The notes under the pieces: model-generated | Seen by the model: only the letters and a program-made list of their open reading frames with translations | Told to the model about the DNA's origin: nothing | Database searches by the model: none | Shown: one piece after another, positions 35,210 to 48,135 of the stretch | Numbering within the stretch: the first letter of the stretch is position 1 | How the letters are laid out: every line of letters starts with the position of its first letter | Source of the DNA: Nannocystales bacterium | GTDB taxonomy: Bacteria > Myxococcota_A > Polyangia > Nannocystales > Nannocystaceae | Direction of reading: 5' to 3' | DNA length: 64,000 nucleotides | Assembly: GCA_050633305.1 (NCBI GenBank) | Contig: JBOEGF010000043.1 | Location: 224,001-288,000, forward strand | Translations under genes and position numbers: made by a program

Positions 35210-35211
35210 CA

Positions 35212-35284
35212 TGGAGGAGAGGGGGTTCGAACCCCTGACCTACGCGCTGCCAGCGCGTCGCTCTCCCAACTGAGCTACACCCCC
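35212..35284 (-). tRNA. tRNA-Ala(GGC)
   Basis: Cloverleaf GGGGGTGTAGCTCAGTTGGGAGAGCG..CT-GGC-AG..GGTTCGAAC; G3:U70 identity pair; CCA not encoded. Confidence 0.95.
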
Positions 35285-35317
35285 ATGGAGAACTTCCCCG
35301 CCGTTGACGGGGCGCTT

Positions 35318-36726: not shown

Positions 36727-37533
36727 ATGAAGAGTCTCGTCATTGCCAGCCAAAAGGGAGGGGTGGGGAAGACGACGGTGTCGCTCAACCTCGCCTACGC
36801 GTTCGCTCGGGCGGGATACCGGACGGTTCTTGTCGACACTGATCCCCAAGGGGCAATCGGGCTGTCGCTCTCGAAGTCTCTGACGACGCGGCTTGGCCTC
36901 GCGGACTACGTTGCCGGGGAAACCACCGTGGATGACGCGTTGGTCGCGACCAAGGTCGACGGCTTCTCGATCATCCCGGTCGGTACGGTCGCGCCGCTCG
37001 AAACGCAGAGCTTTGGCGCAGCCATGGCGGACGGAAGCCGACTACGGGGGCTGTTTGACGCCCTCGGCTCGCGTTTCGACCTGGCCTTGGTGGACACACC
37101 GTGTGGGTTCGGCGGCATCACCGCCGGCGCGCTCCGAGCTTGCTCGCATGCCGTCTCGCCGATTCAAGCGGAGCCAATCTCACTGCGCTCGGTGATGCAG
37201 CTGCTGGAGATGGTCAAGGCCCTGGGCGCGGAGGGGGAAGTCGCCGGTGTCGTCGGATTCTTGCTGAGCATGCTTCAAACGGACGACGAGGCGTCGCTTC
37301 AAGTTGCGCGGGATGTCTGGGAGATGTTCCCGCGCGAACTCTTGTTCGACGTCAGTGTCCCGCGCGATGGCGTGTTCCTCGAGGCGACCGCTGCGGGCGT
37401 CCCGGTGGGCCTGCTGCGCCGGCCTGCTCCCCCTGTCACCCACGTTTTCGACTTGGTCGCGTCCGAACTGGCGCGACGAATGGAACTGGATACCGCGAGG
37501 ATGGTCGATGGCCCACAGTCACTCCTGGATTGA
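36727..37533 (+). CDS. ParA/Soj-family ATPase (orphan, no parB nearby)
   Basis: SQKGGVGKTT deviant Walker A, VDTDPQG, VDTP. Confidence 0.9.
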   Translation: MKSLVIASQKGGVGKTTVSLNLAYAFARAGYRTVLVDTDPQGAIGLSLSKSLTTRLGLADYVAGETTVDDALVATKVDGFSIIPVGTVAPLETQSFGAAMADGSRLRGLFDALGSRFDLALVDTPCGFGGITAGALRACSHAVSPIQAEPISLRSVMQLLEMVKALGAEGEVAGVVGFLLSMLQTDDEASLQVARDVWEMFPRELLFDVSVPRDGVFLEATAAGVPVGLLRRPAPPVTHVFDLVASELARRMELDTARMVDGPQSLLD

Positions 37534-38182
37534 TCTCGACACGCTGCGGGCATTGGTCAAGGACACGGCGTACCGCCCGTTGGCTGGCGACGAGCTGCCA
37601 GGCGCCATGACGGATCGGTCTGCGCTGCTCGAGACGAGTTCGCCCCCACGTCCCCCCGAGCGTTCGGCGCCTGCCGAGCCCACCCTCGATCGTACGCCGA
37701 CTCCCTCGCGGCCCGTGGGGTCGGTCCGACGTGCGACACGGCCGACGCTGCCGAACCCCGACCTCGGTCCGCCGGGGTCGCCACCACCGGTTCGCGCATC
37801 GATGCTCGACCCGTTTCTCCCCACCCCCGGTCGCTTGGAGTCCCGCCTCGAGCAGCTCATGGTCTGGGCGTGCAAGGTGACCGGGCTGGCCCGGGCCTAT
37901 GTCGCCGACTCCGACGGTCTGCTCGTCGCATCCCTCAACGCTGGCGCGAACGCGGTGGATGACGCCGCCGCTGCGGTCGATCTCTGTTCCCGGTCCGTAC
38001 CCGCGGACATTGGGGGGGCGGACGCAGGCTCCATAACCATGGTGGCTTCGGAGCGAACGCATGTGATCGCTTGGGATCTCACGCGTCACGGGCGGACGTA
38101 CCTGGCTCTGTCCGGGACCGTCGAACCAACGTCCGAAGCCCTCTCCACTCTTTCCCGCGCTCTCCGTGACGCGCTTCGCTAA
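37508..38182 (+). CDS. Pro-rich linker plus C-terminal Roadblock/LC7 (MglB)-like domain
   Basis: LEQL..VTGLARAYVADSDGLLVAS matches the Roadblock alpha1-beta1-beta2 pattern; overlaps the parA end. Confidence 0.6.
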   Translation: MAHSHSWIDLDTLRALVKDTAYRPLAGDELPGAMTDRSALLETSSPPRPPERSAPAEPTLDRTPTPSRPVGSVRRATRPTLPNPDLGPPGSPPPVRASMLDPFLPTPGRLESRLEQLMVWACKVTGLARAYVADSDGLLVASLNAGANAVDDAAAAVDLCSRSVPADIGGADAGSITMVASERTHVIAWDLTRHGRTYLALSGTVEPTSEALSTLSRALRDALR

Positions 38183-38195
38183 ACGAGACTTGACC

Positions 38196-38906
38196 ATGAC
38201 GAATCCTGAGTTCGCCGCGCTGGTTCGCACCATCGAGCCGTTGCGCGCATGCTTCATCATCGAAGCGAGCAGTGGTGCACTGCACCGCGAGTTCCGTAGG
38301 GGCGCCCTTACCGTTGAGCCCGACGTGGTTGCGCGTGCTGTCGCCGGGTTGGCCCGGGCGCAAACTGAGCTCGTGGGTTCCTCCGAGCCTGCCACCCTCA
38401 CCACGCTGGAATGGCCGGGGGTGACGTTGATCGTTCGGTCGGTTTCAGCCTCCGCGCTCGTGGTGTTCTTCTTCGACGCCGAAATGTCGCTTGGGCTTGC
38501 CCGCATGCACATCACCAACGTGCTCGACCAACTCGACTCACACCTTCCGGTGGCGCACGCGACCACGGTCCGCGAGATGCCTGCGGTCCCTGCATCGCTG
38601 GCCTACTCGACGCCAGAGCCAGAGCCGGCGATCGAAAGGCCGCAACCTGCTGCAGCGCCAGCGCCAGCGCCCGAGCCGACTGCGACCGATGAGTTGCCGG
38701 CTCCGGGAGGCTCGAGGGCAGGAAAACTCCTGGGTTATCTCGATGACAACGCGCCCGACACCCACGCGGCGCTCCTTCGAGTGTCGCTGCAAACGGGTTT
38801 GCCGCTCTCCCTTCTCAAGACTCCCGAACGCCTCTCTGGGGAGGAATTCGATCAGGTCACCGCATCCGTCCGCCGAATCCTTGGCGTCGAACAACTCCCG
38901 CTTTGA
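38196..38906 (+). CDS. N-terminal Roadblock-like domain, linker and small helical C-terminal domain
   Basis: ACFIIEASSG..TLIVRSV..VVFFFD..SLGLARM pattern. Confidence 0.55.
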   Translation: MTNPEFAALVRTIEPLRACFIIEASSGALHREFRRGALTVEPDVVARAVAGLARAQTELVGSSEPATLTTLEWPGVTLIVRSVSASALVVFFFDAEMSLGLARMHITNVLDQLDSHLPVAHATTVREMPAVPASLAYSTPEPEPAIERPQPAAAPAPAPEPTATDELPAPGGSRAGKLLGYLDDNAPDTHAALLRVSLQTGLPLSLLKTPERLSGEEFDQVTASVRRILGVEQLPL

Positions 38907-38920
38907 GGAAGACCTGAGCG

Positions 38921-40180
38921 ATGACAAATACGATTGATTCGGCTCGGCTCCACGTGCCCGAGCATCAGTTCGACTTCCTCGCTGGGAGTCCCGTGGTGGT
39001 GCACTGCCACCACTTCAACCTGTTTTGGGACCAAACGATGGACGACGCGCTCGGCGAAGAGGTCGGCCGTCGGGTTCGGACCCATGCCGCGCACAAGTCC
39101 AGCTACAAGTTCCTTCGTGGCTTGGTCGACGAGGTGGGCGCAACGTCGCCGGTCGAACGACTGCGCCTCGCCGCGACGGTGTTCTCCGCCATGGGGCACG
39201 GCAAGTTGCACCTCGCGGTCGGTCGCAGCGGCGGACTCGTGCGGGGAGAGCAGCTTCACTATGGGTTCGGGTGGGGCGAAAAATACGGAGGACGCCTGTC
39301 TCGAAGCCACCCCGCGGATGCGTTCGCGACGGGGTTCAGCGCGGCGGCCACCGAGGTCGCGTACAACCTGGACCCGGGAACGCGGCGCGCGACCGAAGAG
39401 CGATGCATCGTCGATGGGAGCGCCGGATGCAGCATCCGGGTGTCCGGTGCCGACGCTGAGCCGATCCTCCCTCTCGGGGTGGATCCGCAGTCCGCGAAGG
39501 AGGTCCTGCCGCCCTCGTTCGACGGGATGTACGAAGATCAGATCGCACCGATCGTCTCGGGGCTTCGGGAGTTCCTCTCGGGAGTCGCGGGGGACAACCG
39601 CGGCGTGATCGAAGCGTTCGGCGTGCTGGTCACTGCGCACTTGGCCGACTACTACAACCACGCTGCGAACGACGTCCTGGACATCATCGCAGAGGAAAAG
39701 CCCGCAGGCGTGCAAGCGTTCCGGGCCCTGTTGTTGGAGGCTGGGACGGCCTGCGCGTTCCATACGTTCGGCGGGGTGTTGGCCTCTCCGGAATGGGAAG
39801 GGCTGGTCGGCCCTCCGACGGGGGACCCGCTCGAGGTCGTCATCGGATGTGCTGCACTGGCGCGTGCGCTTGGCTTTGGCCGTTGGGCGATCGAAGAGTT
39901 CGAACCCGAAACACGGCTCGTCATGACGAGCCCTGGGACCTACGAGTCGGTCTTCTCGCGGCTGATCTCCGCCAACGCGGCGGAGGGCCCCGGAGGCATC
40001 TTCGTCGGCGCTGGAATCGGGATCATGCAGCTCGCACACGGCGTCAACTGGCAGCCGCGGGCCAACATCGATGGCAAGCTCTATCTTGATCTCGCGAGGA
40101 GCAATCCGTGGGTCGTGACTCAGGAAAGCTCGTTTGCGGCGGGGGACGTTCTCGATCGGATCGTGGTGACCCGTCGATGA
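38921..40180 (+). CDS. Tandem V4R (4-vinyl reductase-like) domain protein
   Basis: MGHG..FATGF..EERCIVDGSAGC and LGFGRW..QESSFAAGD halves; HCHH motif. Confidence 0.65.
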   Translation: MTNTIDSARLHVPEHQFDFLAGSPVVVHCHHFNLFWDQTMDDALGEEVGRRVRTHAAHKSSYKFLRGLVDEVGATSPVERLRLAATVFSAMGHGKLHLAVGRSGGLVRGEQLHYGFGWGEKYGGRLSRSHPADAFATGFSAAATEVAYNLDPGTRRATEERCIVDGSAGCSIRVSGADAEPILPLGVDPQSAKEVLPPSFDGMYEDQIAPIVSGLREFLSGVAGDNRGVIEAFGVLVTAHLADYYNHAANDVLDIIAEEKPAGVQAFRALLLEAGTACAFHTFGGVLASPEWEGLVGPPTGDPLEVVIGCAALARALGFGRWAIEEFEPETRLVMTSPGTYESVFSRLISANAAEGPGGIFVGAGIGIMQLAHGVNWQPRANIDGKLYLDLARSNPWVVTQESSFAAGDVLDRIVVTRR

Positions 40181-40515
40181 GTCTTGCCCTGGGATTCGCG
40201 CGTGACGTTGGCTGTCGGGCCGACTTGTTGTGGCGCTGCGATTTGGTGGACGGGACGCAAACCGCCGCATGGGTTGCGCTCGCTACTGCAGCGGGGTTCT
40301 CGTCGGTCCCCGGTTCCTCGCGTCTGGGCGTTGCGGTGTTGGAAGAGCCCGGGTCGGGTCATCGCATCGTTGCCGTGTTGCGGACCGGGCGTCTGCAGAT
40401 CCGGTTGGACGCCATGACGCCGAAACCGACGCGTGTGCTGCAAGCACGGCGGCTCTTCGATCGACTCCGCGCCCTTGAGGCGCCCGTGGACAGCCCGCAG
40501 CTGGAGGCCCCATGA
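40177..40515 (+). CDS. Hypothetical small protein in the ParA/Roadblock operon
   Basis: ATGA overlaps on both sides. Confidence 0.6.
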   Translation: MSLALGFARDVGCRADLLWRCDLVDGTQTAAWVALATAAGFSSVPGSSRLGVAVLEEPGSGHRIVAVLRTGRLQIRLDAMTPKPTRVLQARRLFDRLRALEAPVDSPQLEAP

Positions 40516-41618
40516 GCATGAAAGTGTTGCTGGTCGACTCGGACCTCGCGCTGCTTCGCACGATGCGTGGTGCCGCCGCGGCGGAAGGCGGGACCATCGA
40601 GCTGCTGACCGCGCAGACCTGGGATGCCGCGTTGGAGCTGCTCACGATCGTCGAGCCCGCGTTGGTGGTGGGTGCCGTCGAGCGGACGACCGCGCCTGAG
40701 TTGTCCTCGCTCGTTCAGCTGCAGCGGCGGGGGCTCGCCGTGGCGGCGTTCGGACCCGACGTGCCCGAGTTGGTCCGGGTCGCGGCTGCCGCAGGCGTGG
40801 CGGAGTACATCTGCAAGCCGATCAGCAGCGCCGCGTTTTTTGTTCGACTCCAGCGACTGATCCGGGCTGCGGCCACAAGCAGCAAGGCTGGACTCACCGG
40901 GTTTGCGCTGGCGGACCTGCTTCAGCTGGTGTCGATGTCCCGCCAGAACATGACGCTGCGAGTTCGTAGCGGCGACAAAGCGGGCGAACTCGTCGTGGCT
41001 GAGGGGATGCTCGTGCATGCCGAGGCTGGGGAGCAACGCGGACTCGAAGCTGCGGTCGCGGTACTCGATTGGCCCAACAGTGAAGTGTCCTCCAGTCCCG
41101 AGGTCCCCGCGAAGGCATCGTGGACGACGGACGTTCCCTTGATGGAGCTCCTCGTCGATGCCGCTCGGCTGCGGGACGAGAAGCACCGGGACGATGCGAA
41201 CCGCCAAGTTGAGCAGCTCGTGTCCGAAGCCCTCGAGCTTCCCGGTGTGGTTGCCGCGGCGCTCATTCATGTGGCCTCGCGGACCGAGGTCCACGGGGAT
41301 GGTGCGGTCGGCAACGGTCGGACCCTCGGTCTGGGTTTGGTTCTCGACGCGCTCGCGCTTGGAGACGAGCGGGGGCAGGGGGAGCAGCCGCTGGAGATCC
41401 AGTTTTCGCTGGGCTCGTGCGACGTGCTCGGTTGTGCGGTTGGCGCGACCGGTGTGGTGATGGTGGTCTGGACCGATGCCGGGGAGCTTCGCTCGGGCAC
41501 CCAGCTTGCGCTGCGACGAGCGCGCGAGCGCGACGCCGAACAAACGGCGACAGCATTTTCGACGGTGGGGATCGACCTCGTCGACCACGACGTCGACGAC
41601 GACTTCCGGTTGGAATAG
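40512..41618 (+). CDS. Pseudo-receiver + DUF4388 (PATAN) + Roadblock-like protein
   Basis: KVLLVDSD..YICKP (REC); LADLLQLVSMSRQ..GMLVHAE..LDW..LMELLVDAARLRDE (DUF4388); ELPGVVAAALI (Roadblock). Confidence 0.8.
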   Translation: MSMKVLLVDSDLALLRTMRGAAAAEGGTIELLTAQTWDAALELLTIVEPALVVGAVERTTAPELSSLVQLQRRGLAVAAFGPDVPELVRVAAAAGVAEYICKPISSAAFFVRLQRLIRAAATSSKAGLTGFALADLLQLVSMSRQNMTLRVRSGDKAGELVVAEGMLVHAEAGEQRGLEAAVAVLDWPNSEVSSSPEVPAKASWTTDVPLMELLVDAARLRDEKHRDDANRQVEQLVSEALELPGVVAAALIHVASRTEVHGDGAVGNGRTLGLGLVLDALALGDERGQGEQPLEIQFSLGSCDVLGCAVGATGVVMVVWTDAGELRSGTQLALRRARERDAEQTATAFSTVGIDLVDHDVDDDFRLE

Positions 41619-41865: not shown

Positions 41866-42168
41866 ATGCATTGGCTCAATCGCATTCTGCTCGCATTGTT
41901 GGTGGCCGGCGTCGTGGCAATCGCTCCGCGGCAGTTTGAGGCAGCGTCCGACAACGACGACCTGACGAGGGTCTCCGAAGAGAAAGCGGGGTTGCTGGAA
42001 ACCAATACGGTGCTCGCCGGAGAGATCGAACTGTTGCGGGCGGAAATCTCGGCGCTCAAGGGAGACAAGGCAGAGGTGGCTCGCATCGCGCGAGAGGACC
42101 TGAACCTGGTGCTCCCCGGCGAGGTCGTCTTCGAGGTCGACTACAGCAAGCTGGAGGACTCGAAATGA
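41866..42168 (+). CDS. ftsB: Septum formation initiator FtsB/DivIC family
   Basis: TM plus coiled coil plus ARIAREDLNLVLPGEVVF. Confidence 0.8.
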   Translation: MHWLNRILLALLVAGVVAIAPRQFEAASDNDDLTRVSEEKAGLLETNTVLAGEIELLRAEISALKGDKAEVARIAREDLNLVLPGEVVFEVDYSKLEDSK

Positions 42169-44351
42169 GCGCGTTCGCCCGAAGCCTCTATGGACTCCGA
42201 CGCCAGGTCAGCGGCCGTTGGCCGGTGCTCGTCTTGTTGCTCGTGTGGCCCATGTTGTGGACCGGTGCGCTCAGCGGTGCGGCGTTGTGGCAGGCCCGGC
42301 TTCCGCAGGTGTCGGCGGTCGCGCTGCTGACCGTCGCGCTCGTCTGGTCCGTGCTGCGCGAAGTCTCGGGGCCCCGCGCGAGCGCGGAGCGGTCCGCAGC
42401 CGCCGAGCTGGAGTTGGGCATGCTTCTTGTGACGGGCGTCTTTGTGCTGCTCGCTGCGACCGGGGGCGCACGCTCCTTCCTCTACCCGTTGGCGTACGCG
42501 GTCGTCTCGTTTCTCCTCGTCGTTCACCGACACCGCGTCGTTGCGATCGGCCTGTTGCTCTCGACCGTCGTCTTGGAACTCGCGCTGGGTTTCAACGCTG
42601 GGTTCGAGGGCGCCTGGACGCTCACCGCGTACCACCTCACCTTCCTCGGGTTCTTCGCTGCCGGCAACATGCTGGTGCTCTCGTCCCTGGTCCGTCGTCT
42701 GCGAAAGACGCATGTGACCGAGGTCGAAGCATCCCTGGAGCAGATGCGACAAGAGGCGCGAGACTTCCGCTTGATCGGGTCCTCGCTGCCCCCCGAGAGC
42801 CGGGCTCGCTCGCGCGAGGAAGAAGAACTCCGGATGGCCCATGCCGCGGTCGAGGGCATCCACGAGCAGCTGTTTCATACGCTCGAGCTTCTGCGCACCT
42901 CGATGCGGCTGCGCTCGTGTGTCCTGCTGTGGTGCGAGCAAAACGGGGGCGGCAAGATCAGCGCCCGAAATCCGCCGACCCTCGTCGTCAAAGAAATCGC
43001 CACGCAGAGCGAGTACGCCGCCGAAGAGCGGGTGCTGTCCGGGCCAGGCCTGCTGACCTCACTGATCGCCGACCCCAAAGAAGTTCGCCTTCACACCCTC
43101 AAGGGAAAGCGGCTCCCGCCGTACTATCAGGGGCCCGAGCCGGTCACGGACCTGTGCGCCGTGCCGCTGCTCGACGGCGCGAGCCTGCGCGGGATCTTGT
43201 GCGCCGACCGGATCGATGACCAACCGTTCTCGGATGAGGATGCCGCGGTGCTCAACCGTGCTGCGAACCACATCCGTCGCGTCATCGAGCACGAGCGCGT
43301 GTTTGCGGCCGTCGAACGCAGCAAGTACGAGCAAGAGCAGTTCTACCGAGCTTCGGAGATGCTCTCCGAGGCGCTGACGCTCGAGCAGGTCTGCGAGAAG
43401 ACGTTCTGCGCGATTCGGACGATCGCCGGCTACGACCTTGGGGTGATCAGCGTGGTCGGTCCCGGGGGAGAACACGATGCGCTGGCCGTCGATGCCAGCG
43501 AGCAAGAGGGCGAGTGGGCGTCTCTGGCGAGCGAACTGCAGGGCCATCGGTGGTCCAACACGCGCTCGTTGGTCTCGATGGCGGTCAAGAATCGTCACAC
43601 CATGCCCGCGACGGGTGACCTCGCGGACCCCGATGCTCCGGTGTTCGGAGAGGGTGTTCGCCTGCCCAACGCGAAGAGCATCATCGTGCTGCCGCTGCTT
43701 CGCGGGGAGCAGGTACTGGGCGCCATCACATTGCTCGCCAAGCGCGGGGCGGTGTTCCCCACGGCGACTCGGGAGATGCTGCGGGTCATCGGCCACCATG
43801 TTGCGGTGAGCCTGCAGAACGCTCGGATGTACCAGTCGATGGAGACTCGGGCGACGACGGACGGCCTCACCGGGCTGACCAACCACCGCGCGTTTCAGGA
43901 GCGGCTCGCTCAACTTCACGATCTGGCCGAGCGTACCGGCCAGAAGTACTCGGTCGTGCTCACCGACATCGATCACTTCAAGAGCATCAACGACACGTAT
44001 GGACACCCCGTTGGGGACCAGGTCCTCAAGCGTGTTTCGTCGATCTTCACGGGTCGAGCGCGCAAGGTCGACACCGTGGCTCGCTACGGTGGCGAGGAGT
44101 TCGTGCTCGTGCTGCCCGACACGGATGGCAAGAGCGCGGAGCAACTCGCCAACAAGCTGCGTGAAGAGATCGGCGAACAGGTGATGACCAGCGAGCACGG
44201 CACGTTCAAGATCACGATCTCGATGGGTGTTGCCGAGTTCCCGCTCGACGGCAAGGAGCGCCTGGGATTGATCGAGAAGGCCGATCAGGCGCTGTACTAC
44301 TGCAAAGAGCACGGTCGAAACTGCGTGCGTCGCTGGGCCGACGGAGCCTGA
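42165..44351 (+). CDS. dmxA: Membrane diguanylate cyclase, TM-GAF-GAF-GGDEF (DmxA-like)
   Basis: DGLTGLTN, DIDHFKSINDTYGH, RxxD I-site (RKVD) before GGEEF; two GAF-like regions; coupled to ftsB. Symbol inferred from architecture and synteny. Confidence 0.8.
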   Translation: MSAFARSLYGLRRQVSGRWPVLVLLLVWPMLWTGALSGAALWQARLPQVSAVALLTVALVWSVLREVSGPRASAERSAAAELELGMLLVTGVFVLLAATGGARSFLYPLAYAVVSFLLVVHRHRVVAIGLLLSTVVLELALGFNAGFEGAWTLTAYHLTFLGFFAAGNMLVLSSLVRRLRKTHVTEVEASLEQMRQEARDFRLIGSSLPPESRARSREEEELRMAHAAVEGIHEQLFHTLELLRTSMRLRSCVLLWCEQNGGGKISARNPPTLVVKEIATQSEYAAEERVLSGPGLLTSLIADPKEVRLHTLKGKRLPPYYQGPEPVTDLCAVPLLDGASLRGILCADRIDDQPFSDEDAAVLNRAANHIRRVIEHERVFAAVERSKYEQEQFYRASEMLSEALTLEQVCEKTFCAIRTIAGYDLGVISVVGPGGEHDALAVDASEQEGEWASLASELQGHRWSNTRSLVSMAVKNRHTMPATGDLADPDAPVFGEGVRLPNAKSIIVLPLLRGEQVLGAITLLAKRGAVFPTATREMLRVIGHHVAVSLQNARMYQSMETRATTDGLTGLTNHRAFQERLAQLHDLAERTGQKYSVVLTDIDHFKSINDTYGHPVGDQVLKRVSSIFTGRARKVDTVARYGGEEFVLVLPDTDGKSAEQLANKLREEIGEQVMTSEHGTFKITISMGVAEFPLDGKERLGLIEKADQALYYCKEHGRNCVRRWADGA

Positions 44352-44913: not shown

Positions 44914-45987
44914 TCAACTCTCGCGCTTGGGCTCGCGCAGCAGTCGTTCGCGCACGCGCTGGTACTGGCGGCGCTTGTAGTTGCTGTGCGAGCTCTCGCC
45001 CTCTTCGTTGGCATCGCGACGGGCGAGGTCGACGACCTGAAACTCCGCGAGCACGAACACGACGTTGCCTTTGCCTTCGGGCAGTTCGTCGTAGAGGTCG
45101 TCCATTCGCACCGGGAGGTCGGCCACGAAGTTGAGGATCTGGTAGCCGCGCCCCGAGAACTCGTTGGCGAGGCCGGTCAGGGGGACCGTCGGAAGCGCGG
45201 AAAAATCTCGGGCCCGGCTGACTTTGCGCTCGATGGAGACCGCGTCGACCAGGGTGTTGACCGTCTGGGCGGGCACGACGAAGTTGAACGGAATGAACCG
45301 CTGCAGCATCACGTGCAGGGTTGGGATGATGTCGCGGGGGCGGTCGACGACCACCCGGAACCGGAGTCGGTCGAAAACCCGCGCAGCACTGGACTCCCGC
45401 TTCACCAGGAGTTTGGTGATCAGCGAATCCTGGGTCTTTCGTGACCACGCGAACTCCTTGACCGGAACGCCCGCGGAGACCAACTCGTCAAACAGCGTGA
45501 CGACGCTCTGCTCGACGTGGGCGTACAGCGCGTTGTCTGCGATGGGCAGCAACAGACGAAGCTCGCGCGCATCGAGGTGATAGATGATGTGCATCACCTT
45601 CAACAGCGTGCACGCCTCGCGGCGATGTTTGCCGCGAGTCGAGGCCATGAGGAAGACTTCCTCGATGGTGGCTTCGATGCCGACAGCCTCGCTCAGTCGC
45701 AGACCGAGTGTCTCGCGGATGTAGGTCAGCGACCGGGCGCGGACGTCCTCGGCGCGCTCGCGGTCGGCGGGAACGCTGGGGTCGATGCCATTGACCTTGA
45801 GGAGGCGCGTGACATCGCCTTCATCCCGCAGGCCGAGACGGTGCCAATCGATGACCGAGTCTCCGCGCAGCAGCAGCCGGATTTCGTGGACCTCCTGCAG
45901 GGAGAGACGGGCCAAGGCGGAGGCGAAGGGCTGCGTCGGTCCGGGAAGGAAGACGCGAGGTTCTGCCGGTGGTGGGCGCTCTGCCAT
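44914..45987 (-). CDS. TIGR04552-family protein (RelA/SpoT-like nucleotidyltransferase fold)
   Basis: SVIDWHRL, SLITKLL.K, FDRLRFRVV, NEFSG..Y, EFQV, SH..YK.RQ. Confidence 0.75.
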   Translation of the reverse strand: MAERPPPAEPRVFLPGPTQPFASALARLSLQEVHEIRLLLRGDSVIDWHRLGLRDEGDVTRLLKVNGIDPSVPADRERAEDVRARSLTYIRETLGLRLSEAVGIEATIEEVFLMASTRGKHRREACTLLKVMHIIYHLDARELRLLLPIADNALYAHVEQSVVTLFDELVSAGVPVKEFAWSRKTQDSLITKLLVKRESSAARVFDRLRFRVVVDRPRDIIPTLHVMLQRFIPFNFVVPAQTVNTLVDAVSIERKVSRARDFSALPTVPLTGLANEFSGRGYQILNFVADLPVRMDDLYDELPEGKGNVVFVLAEFQVVDLARRDANEEGESSHSNYKRRQYQRVRERLLREPKRES

Positions 45988-47414: not shown

Positions 47415-47487
47415 AGGAAGGCGCATGATGCGCGGCTCCACCTTGTCCAGCACCTCGACCCCGACCCTCACCTCCGGAGATCGCTCA

Positions 47488-48135
47488 ATGCGGCCCATGC
47501 TCACCGACCGTCAGCGCCAAGCGCTCGACTACATCGCCGAGTGTCTCGATGTCCGAGGATACCCACCCACCCTTCGCGAGATCGGTGAACACATGGGCAT
47601 CCGTTCAACCAACGGCGTCAACGACCACCTCAAGGCACTTGAGCGCAAAGGTTACCTCCTTCGCGAGGAACTCAAGAGCCGAGCGCTCCGCCCGATCGAC
47701 TACGGCAGCAGCGCCAACAAGGAGAAGCGCGACGACTCGCTCGAGATCAACATCATCGGTCGCGTGGCCGCTGGTGAGCCGATCCTCGCCGAGGAGAACG
47801 TCGTCGACAAGGTGGTCGTCGATCGCCAGTTCCTTGGCGCCGTCGCGCAGCGTGAGGTCTTCGGCCTTGTCGTGCGTGGCGAGTCGATGATCGAAGACGG
47901 CATCTTCGACGGGGACTACATCTTCGTCCGTAAGCAGAGCACCGCCGAGACCGGCGAGATCGTCGTCGTGATGGTCGAGGGCGAGGCCACCTGCAAGCGG
48001 TTCTACCCCGAAGGTGACCGCGTTCGTCTGCAGCCCGCCAACGAGACGATGTCTCCGATCTACGTCGACCGCACCGAGTTCCGCGCCGTCGACATCCTCG
48101 GCAAGGTCTGCGGCGTCTATCGCCGCGTGCACTAG
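47488..48135 (+). CDS. lexA: SOS repressor LexA
   Basis: [28 protein letters not shown] cleavage site, GESM (Ser), ATCKR (Lys); GGAGA SD. Confidence 0.95.

Follow-up and report, generated by a model that had tools for sequence, protein, structure and literature searches.

A conserved six-gene cassette of a Nannocystales bacterium, joining a ParA ATPase to Roadblock and tandem V4R proteins: a predicted variant of Roadblock-NTPase switches

To our knowledge, the bacterial Roadblock cases tested so far involve small GTPases. Among the described systems closest to the locus considered here are the MglA/MglB systems, with MglC and RomY, of Myxococcus xanthus and Thermus. Roadblock proteins have been predicted to regulate NTPases broadly (PMC4316618), genes for PATAN (DUF4388) proteins lie near MglA/MglB, and orphan MglBs are common, 328 out of 749 (Wuichet and Sogaard-Andersen, PMC4316618). 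PriB1 ParAs are said, in one sentence of a preprint, to take the place of MglA within MglA-MglB systems (Li, Burroughs and Aravind, bioRxiv 10.64898/2026.10.19.760177, Fig. 2B panel 16). Here we analyze a cassette of six genes, g1 to g6 (Table 1), encoding a ParA, two Roadblock proteins, a tandem V4R protein, a small Cys protein and a PATAN protein, and contained in a stretch of 64,000 nucleotides, hereafter the window (assembly GCA_050633305.1, contig JBOEGF010000043.1, positions 224,001 to 288,000, forward strand), of the genome (11.0 Mb, 92% complete) of a soil myxobacterium of the Nannocystales.

With the MglA/MglB systems the cassette shares MglB-like Roadblocks beside a P-loop NTPase, a PATAN gene nearby and the phylum, and sister operons of its sensor carry true MglAB; it differs in that its NTPase is a ParA ATPase, a tandem V4R protein is built in, its Roadblocks carry an N-helix and linker (g2) or a helical H domain (g3), and the mglBA genes of the genome lie elsewhere. 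PomXYZ, ParC/ParP and McdAB likewise pair an orphan ParA with an adjoining partner having a conserved N-terminal peptide, but in the cassette this peptide is amphipathic and neutral rather than basic, the partner is a Roadblock protein, and the DNA-binding arginines of Soj are lost. In PriB1 systems, too, a ParA within MglB-type signalling loci is read as a switch. The PriB1 Gln two residues after the DxD motif corresponds to Q41 in 23 of 26 rows of the present family, whereas the start of Walker A is Ser here (24 of 26) and Asn in PriB1. The passages on PriB1 mention neither V4R, the H domain, g5, the ODP link nor the gene overlap, and PriB1 and the clade of the cassette ParA are possibly, though not certainly, the same. 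The preliminary description of this locus had presented the system as undescribed; the switch idea is already stated for ParA in that 2026 preprint, which we count in favour of our reading. No paper was found on this operon, nor on the combinations roadblock+V4R+ParA or DUF4388+roadblock, in a search which most subscription papers fell outside.

The cassette is composed of two modules, an engine (ParA and g2) and a sensor (tandem V4R, helical domain and small Cys protein). It is real and conserved, and its predicted function is that of a variant of Roadblock-NTPase switches. In the reading that we prefer, and to which we give about an even chance, it is a cytoplasmic signalling cassette in which the sensor module would gate, via the Roadblocks, a ParA acting as an on/off switch. 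What is established is presented first: the folds, the order of the genes, the separate re-use of the modules, the catalytic residues, the homology of the H domain and selection on the ParA/g2 overlap.

Tandem-V4R matches define 115 loci (4 duplicates were removed), 64 of which hold g3, and 32 have at least 2.3 kb upstream of it. Among the latter, the order ParA-g2-g3-V4R is found in 26, corresponding to 18 groups at 70% identity (median 46%), g2-g3-V4R in 2 and g3-V4R in 4; gene order is thus conserved, as initially supposed. A V4R orthologue is present in all 6 other genomes of the genus, and, by homologue match alone, a close one is found in the genome of the cultured Haliangium ochraceum. 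Among 401 genomes of the phylum, 7 contain a full-length g3, with 8 copies in all, each directly before a tandem V4R. A copy from the same genus, L020/L034 (genome G004), shows apparent frameshifts in ParA, g3 and V4R and has no g5 or g6, by decay or assembly error.

Both modules are re-used separately. A ParA profile, run over the 401 phylum genomes, identified 24 places in 19 genomes at E 1e-55 or better; the 18 further ParA places examined include one of the V4R type, one outside the clade and 16 non-V4R clade members. In a tree of 47 rows, 7 near-duplicates being omitted, 40 ParAs form one clade (support 96/83), separate from the chromosomal ParA. A partner is kept in 15 of the 16 non-V4R clade loci, as an overlapping in-frame gene of at least 155 residues in 13 cases, one of 72 residues in another and a non-overlapping one in L165; one locus has none. 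Five non-V4R pairs lie in kinase-Roadblock-REC(-DUF4388) operons, and the pair is also found on its own. An ODP gene is found in four ParA-clade loci (L171, L172, L174 and L180), in kinase-REC-ParA-Roadblock operons, ODP being an oxygen-binding di-iron sensor family (PMC7666581).

The sensor, in turn, is found without ParA: V4R pairs, tandem or split, that are followed by a small protein have PAS histidine kinase, CheA/MCP or NifS-like genes as neighbours. L162 and L163 read Roadblock-V4R-V4R-NifS-small Cys protein-unknown-MglB-MglA-DUF4388, a GTPase-bearing sister of the sensor core. In L158, L160, L161, L162, L163 and L164, in flagellar, chemotaxis or MglAB contexts, the V4R pair lies next to a small Cys protein and a NifS-like cysteine desulfurase gene. 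The genome under study has, on another contig (G000:C2:173258-176986, that is L021:9258-12987), a tandem V4R paralogue with a 99-residue Cys protein and a PAS/Hpt/HATPase kinase, and no ParA. Three low-GC contigs (L110, L113 and L115) carry the H protein and a tandem V4R; in L113 and L115 hybrid histidine kinases come next, and one of these has a FIST domain.

Within the engine, g1 matches AAA_31 (E 7.8e-25), and its best solved relatives are ParA/Soj. The signature of ParA/MinD ATPases as defined by Li, Burroughs and Aravind (bioRxiv 10.64898/2026.10.19.760177), KGGxGK[ST], DxD and Walker B, is present: K10, D39 and D123 are found in 26 out of 26 rows, K15 in 24. Because Lys10, Asp39 and Asp123 are invariant, g1 should hydrolyse ATP and is predicted to be an ATP-hydrolysing ParA. 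At two positions where the chromosomal ParA of the genome carries Arg, which we take to be the Soj-type DNA-binding sites, g1 has D186 and V216, although other basic residues could presumably substitute; across the family, Arg occupies the first position in 18 of 26 rows and the second position in no row. The C-terminus is formed by an acidic linker, followed by a hydrophobic tail of the form P-x-x-L-hydrophobic-x (22 loci), and, judged from sequence, the g1 tail contains no C-terminal amphipathic membrane helix of the MinD/FlhG type. The loss of the Soj arginines, together with the lack of a MinD-type membrane helix, favours g1 as a switch rather than a nucleoid-walking motor. The sole parB of the genome is on contig C32, beside the chromosomal parA, and none adjoins g1, which therefore does not qualify as part of a ParABS system; the operon is indeed devoid of parB, as first noted. 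Sites resembling parS, with one mismatch to the consensus allowed, are found only on contig C15.

The second component of the engine, g2, is recognized as a Roadblock protein at the profile level: of 24 PDB matches of a 36-row profile of its C-terminal domain, the top 16 are MglB, LAMTOR5 or Robl_LC7 chains (best E 0.0012). Matched singly, 7 of the 36 rows hit Robl_LC7 and 7 LAMTOR5, the row from the window hitting neither; g2 and the Roadblock of g3 align at 6.5% by hhalign. Pfam and NCBIfam searches with the single g2, g3, g4 and g5 sequences gave no match above cut-off.

The overlap of ParA and g2 was analyzed in 22 loci (30 minus 8 near-duplicates), which include kin and are not independent. 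The ParA stop is TGA and the g2 frame is identical in all 22; g2 starts at -26 in 17 of them, against a mean of 5.1 and a maximum of 13 in simulations. Residue 7 of g2 is Trp or Leu in 21 of the 22 loci, where synonymous resampling predicts 10.9 (2000 runs, maximum 17), and the ParA tail has Leu at its third-last residue in 21 and Pro in 18. Asp or Glu at residue 9 of g2, present in 22 out of 22, is forced by the overlapping TGA of ParA. Both overlapping termini, the ParA tail and the g2 N-peptide, look to be under selection. In L165 the genes no longer overlap, yet both motifs are retained. The g2 copies of the two ParA-less loci keeping this gene have lost the motif: they score 0.0 or have no match with an N-peptide profile for which 28 other copies score 14.9-35.1, a comparison with n=2 on one side and with a profile built from most of those 28 copies. 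A predicted complex of the ParA dimer with ATP, Mg and g2 reaches an ipSAE of 0.34, versus 0.00 for the best of 3 controls, with at least 30% of contacts shared between runs and a partner pLDDT of at least 59. Passing scores of 0.60 or less are seen for 18 of 157 solved complexes and for both of the 2 false passes among 215 mismatches. The model gives weak support to ParA-g2 binding. Taken together, selection on the overlap, retention in 15 of 16 non-V4R clade loci and the modelled complex support g2 as a dedicated partner of ParA, as had been proposed for this gene.

The preliminary description had gone further, assigning the N-peptide the role of a ParB/PomX-type activator and ParA that of positioning, and neither suggestion fared well. 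The conserved residues of the peptide are hydrophobic (7, 13, 16 and 17) and make it amphipathic; it contains no invariant Lys or Arg, the best basic column being K/R in 10 of 22, has a net charge of -1 in the window copy, and part of its SWID motif is forced by the overlap. Known orphan-ParA activators of the PomX type carry, at the N-terminus, a short extension of positive charge (PMC7993993). We consider it fairly unlikely that ParA places a V4R sensor cluster as ParC/PpfA, McdA and PomZ place their cargoes, with g2 as adaptor and ATPase activator and the Roadblocks as scaffold only. The kinship of g1 to ParA/Soj, the activator-like layout of g2 (N-peptide, linker, oligomer domain), the company of several different sensors, expected of a generic positioner, and the presence of the first Soj Arg in 18 of 26 would fit such a role, but the second Arg is absent from all 26, both are absent from the window copy, which speaks against positioning of the nucleoid type, the peptide is not basic, and ParA has no amphipathic membrane tail.

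How the sensor is joined to the engine is best indicated by the fusion found in g3. In the Atlas, the structure of its N-terminal domain matches clusters of Roadblock proteins, with TM values by target of up to 0.75, and its profile matches MglB at E 7e-4, while 0 of 39 g3 rows match the Roadblock models of Pfam. Its C-terminal H domain is found, in 15 non-ParA loci, as a stand-alone helical protein of 60-100 residues upstream of V4R. The two align with hhalign at 95% (E 2.6e-8; reversed control 0.3%), and at 94%, 19% and 5% by subset of the small proteins, which were picked by position, 4 of the 15 having first been seen as weak H-profile matches. Since the H domain stands alone elsewhere and matches the g3 C-terminus, g3 consists of a Roadblock joined to a subunit of the sensor, and it probably couples the sensor to the ParA engine.

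The predicted structure of g4 (AlphaFold2, pLDDT 93) has the V4R sensor domains of MopR and PoxR as top Foldseek matches (MopR: E 2e-4, TM 0.73 by target), and hhalign reveals its internal repeat (E 2e-4); PF02830 is annotated on many homologues, though not on the window copy. A Glu is a ligand of the MopR metal site. Residues D133, E159, C162 and C170 of the first V4R repeat, a putative metal site like that of MopR, are conserved in 50 out of 50 close homologues. Among 86 distant ones, 39 have Asp and 25 have Cys at position 133, and most also conserve H28-C29-H30-H31, H113, C278 and E342. The Cys-x7-Cys spacing matches C181 and C189 of MopR, which with C155 are its zinc cysteines (PMC9556785). 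The V4R fold is shared with MopR/PoxR/DmpR and Bet3/TRAPPC3; g4 differs in its two repeats in one chain, the lack of an AAA+ fusion, Asp or Cys as putative first ligand, the additional HCHH motif and a Cys partner. V4R and Roadblock folds also occur with an NTPase in Ragulator and in the GTPase-Roadblock-TRAPPC3 sets of Asgard archaea, where Roadblock and TRAPPC3/V4R genes are mostly found outside operons (Tran et al., PMC10933270).

The Cys partner, g5, accompanies the tandem V4R in loci with and without ParA, following it in 35 of the 41 with downstream room, and its Cys13 is invariant in 42 out of 42 rows. It is modelled confidently as a TBP/KA1-like domain, but the fold search returned only generic TBP/KA1/helix-grip matches (Z 7-8), so that no function can be assigned. 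Profile searches found no Pfam family in more than one of the 42 rows, no solved relative and 19 homologues without a name. Of the small Cys proteins of distant loci, one group is supported as related to g5 (83%, E 9e-6); two further groups, among them the proteins of the NifS/MglA loci, align at 0.09% and 0.14% and are linked by position, size and an N-terminal Cys only.

The g4 motifs, the Cys of g5 and the NifS neighbours of distant loci suggest a second metal or iron-sulfur (Fe-S) site and, given those neighbours, the complex of tandem V4R and Cys protein may hold such a site between its subunits. The swap with ODP sensors suggests an oxygen or iron input. The usual V4R ligand is a hydrophobic small molecule (PMC2253512), and such a ligand for g4 would be an equally open choice.

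The last gene, g6, contains a DUF4388 domain (residues 128-224, E 5.5e-15), preceded by a receiver-like region which, as read from the sequence, carries Ala55 where the phospho-Asp normally sits. Its C-terminal domain is probably a Roadblock, with moderate support from hhalign (54% and E 1.3e-4, the reversed control giving 0.2%; 0.5% against the g3 profile), so that, of the three Roadblock folds initially reported, those of g2 and g3 are on firmer ground. In other loci its slot is taken by a TPR-only, DUF4388-TPR, REC-DUF4388 or DUF4388-Roadblock protein, mostly upstream of ParA. This variability, the histidine kinases found in two ParA clusters (L096 and L147) and the separate occurrence of ParA pair and sensor speak against the initial view of the six genes as one unit. 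PATAN has reportedly been linked to pili in one study (10.1101/2021.06.11.447907). In seven loci (L022, L063, L076, L079, L083, L084 and L091), g5 is followed by a recurrent protein of about 170 residues, with a beta-rich N-terminus, a TPR-like end and no Pfam match. Another accessory protein, c18, was compared with the 293-residue gene of MglA loci and a link between them was rejected (1.9%).

From these elements we infer the physical contacts, the ligand, the direction of the signal and the output. A sensor complex of tandem V4R, g5 and H domain would read a small ligand or a metal/redox state. Co-translated with ParA, g2 would hold the ParA dimer by its amphipathic N-helix, presenting its Roadblock on a flexible linker; g3 would act as coupler, its H domain docking on the sensor and its Roadblock pairing with that of g2. 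The state of the sensor would then alter the engagement of ParA by the Roadblock dimer, and hence the ATP state of ParA. The latter would not be a nucleoid-walking motor but, like MglA in its work with MglB, a switch that turns assembly on or off. Connection to a target, for instance the polar motility machinery, would probably be made by g6, the PATAN protein.

The absence of a GTPase from the cassette, first noted on the window alone, holds more generally: an MglA profile found no match in the window and none in 31 ParA-V4R loci, 18 of which have at least 5 kb on both sides, so that homologous clusters do not normally include MglA. The profile recovered unseeded MglAs on contig C11 and in L176, and is therefore sensitive to MglA, the GTPase group to which this demonstration applies; a generic small-GTPase motif scan, which misses MglA itself, returned a SelB-like gene only. 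The genome encodes mglBA on contig C15 and a second MglA-like GTPase, an orphan gene, on C11 (G000:C11:207953-209038). That the GTPase had been relocated from the cassette was rejected, the C15 genes being an ordinary pair with no sign of relocation. In genome G146, one same-strand run contains a Roadblock gene, a small gene that is possibly V4R-like, MglB-like, MglA, receiver and DUF4388-Roadblock genes, an AAA+ gene and the ParA-g2 pair. This operon (G146:C719) corresponds to L176:142-7439 and L183:341-3125, and its AAA+ protein is DnaA-like.

Several observations weigh against a ParA gated in place of a GTPase. The joint presence of MglB, MglA and the ParA pair in G146, perhaps an ancestral or a hybrid state, means that ParA does not have to be a substitute for MglA; this operon and the GTPases on C15 and C11 indicate that it may act beside or through MglA. 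The MglAB and second GTPase of the genome could also be served by the Roadblocks in trans. Moreover, ParA is missing from 6 of the 32 loci with room upstream of g3, the loci are related, so that counts overstate independence, one of the two Soj arginines is kept in 18 of 26 family members, and the weak complex pass gives no interface, hence does not show the N-helix as a ParA contact. The proposal that ParA replaces the GTPase thus stands as regards the 31 MglA-free loci and the existence of GTPase-bearing sister operons, and is weakened by G146.

We judge it unlikely that the cassette gives sensory input to the ordinary MglA polarity switch, the Roadblocks acting in trans on MglA as extra MglB- or MglC-like proteins, with ParA an accessory recruiter left by a larger MglA operon that lost its GTPase gene. 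The G146 operon, the sensor core beside MglAB in L162 and L163, the two GTPases of the genome and the abundance of orphan MglBs would agree with this, and so would the genes flanking the cluster here and in L064, which resemble ftsB-dmxA. On the other hand, the gene with which g2 is invariably coupled is ParA rather than a GTPase, both g2 and g3 have diverged strongly from MglB (best E about 1e-3), and full-length g3 is restricted to 7 of the 401 genomes.

Patchy distribution is also a feature expected of conflict or immunity systems, and some predicted immune systems contain ParA-V4R fusions and profilin-like partners (Li, Burroughs and Aravind preprint). A role of this kind, with a ParA switch and a V4R sensor of a messenger, appears very improbable. 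No nuclease, TIR or other effector is found among the recurrent neighbours, and neither these nor the cassette contain other marks of ParA conflict systems (effector domain, or the ConB features Arg for the Walker A Lys, ParA-V4R fusion and asparaginase); PADLOC gave a P-loop match only for ParA (E 4e-5) and nothing for the other five proteins; the position is stable across the genus between housekeeping genes, with GC content like the flanks; and in the sister loci the coupling is with kinases and chemotaxis genes.

The six reading frames are coding-like (GC content at third codon positions 0.72-0.79), and the GC content of the cassette matches its flanks. Their same-strand packing, as first described, is confirmed, with successive spacings of -26, +13, +14, -4 and -4 nucleotides; the ParA/g2 overlap is thus longer than the 14 nucleotides initially given as limit. 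The cassette is flanked by exbB/exbD on one side and, on the other, by ftsB followed by a GAF-GAF-GGDEF gene. The latter pair also flanks the ParA cluster in the distant L064 (34.5% identity), and in no other distant locus examined. In M. xanthus, DmxA is encoded in an operon with FtsB, and ftsB-dmxA resets polarity proteins at division (PMC11255338).

Table 1. Features of the cassette and of neighbouring window regions
Feature	Window position	Strand	Size	Description
g1	36727-37533	+	268 aa	orphan ParA/Soj-like ATPase, distinct clade
ParA/g2 overlap	37508-37533	+	26 nt	dual-coded: ParA C-terminal tail and g2 residues 1-9 in next frame
g2	37508-38182	+	224 aa	amphipathic N-helix (W7, D9, L13, L16, V17), Pro-rich linker, C-terminal Roadblock; dedicated ParA partner (supported)
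g3	38196-38906	+	236 aa	MglB-like Roadblock (~1-120), linker, helical H domain (~171-236)
g4	38921-40180	+	419 aa	tandem V4R/Bet3-fold protein, pseudo-heterodimer
g5	40177-40515	+	112 aa	TBP/KA1-like alpha/beta protein, invariant Cys13
g6	40512-41618	+	368 aa	pseudo-receiver, DUF4388/PATAN, probable Roadblock; variable accessory slot
tRNA-Ala(GGC)	35211-35285	-		
ftsB and GGDEF genes	41869-44351			ftsB (DivIC), then transmembrane-GAF-GAF-GGDEF gene; layout of M. xanthus ftsB-dmxA
Weak RelA/SpoT-region match	44914-45987	-	357 aa	E 0.011
LexA-like reading frame	47425-48135	+		candidate

The cassette offers a compact, soluble set of six proteins in which the gating of a ParA ATPase by a Roadblock pair, as well as the roles of orphan MglB-like proteins, can be tested. 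Its sensor (tandem V4R, H and Cys protein), little studied, would provide the input to kinases, chemotaxis arrays, MglAB or ParA, both in Myxococcota and, judging by sequence, in low-GC lineages. Somewhat doubtfully, we propose that it may represent a second bacterial family of Roadblock-controlled switches, in which a SIMIBI ATPase would be gated by a Roadblock heterodimer, the ParA-g2 pair being a plug-in engine for oxygen, iron or redox sensors, either ODP or the complex of tandem V4R and Cys protein. If true, a single complex that contains Roadblock heterodimers along with a Bet3-like pseudo-heterodimer would parallel, in bacteria, the Ragulator and TRAPP assemblies.

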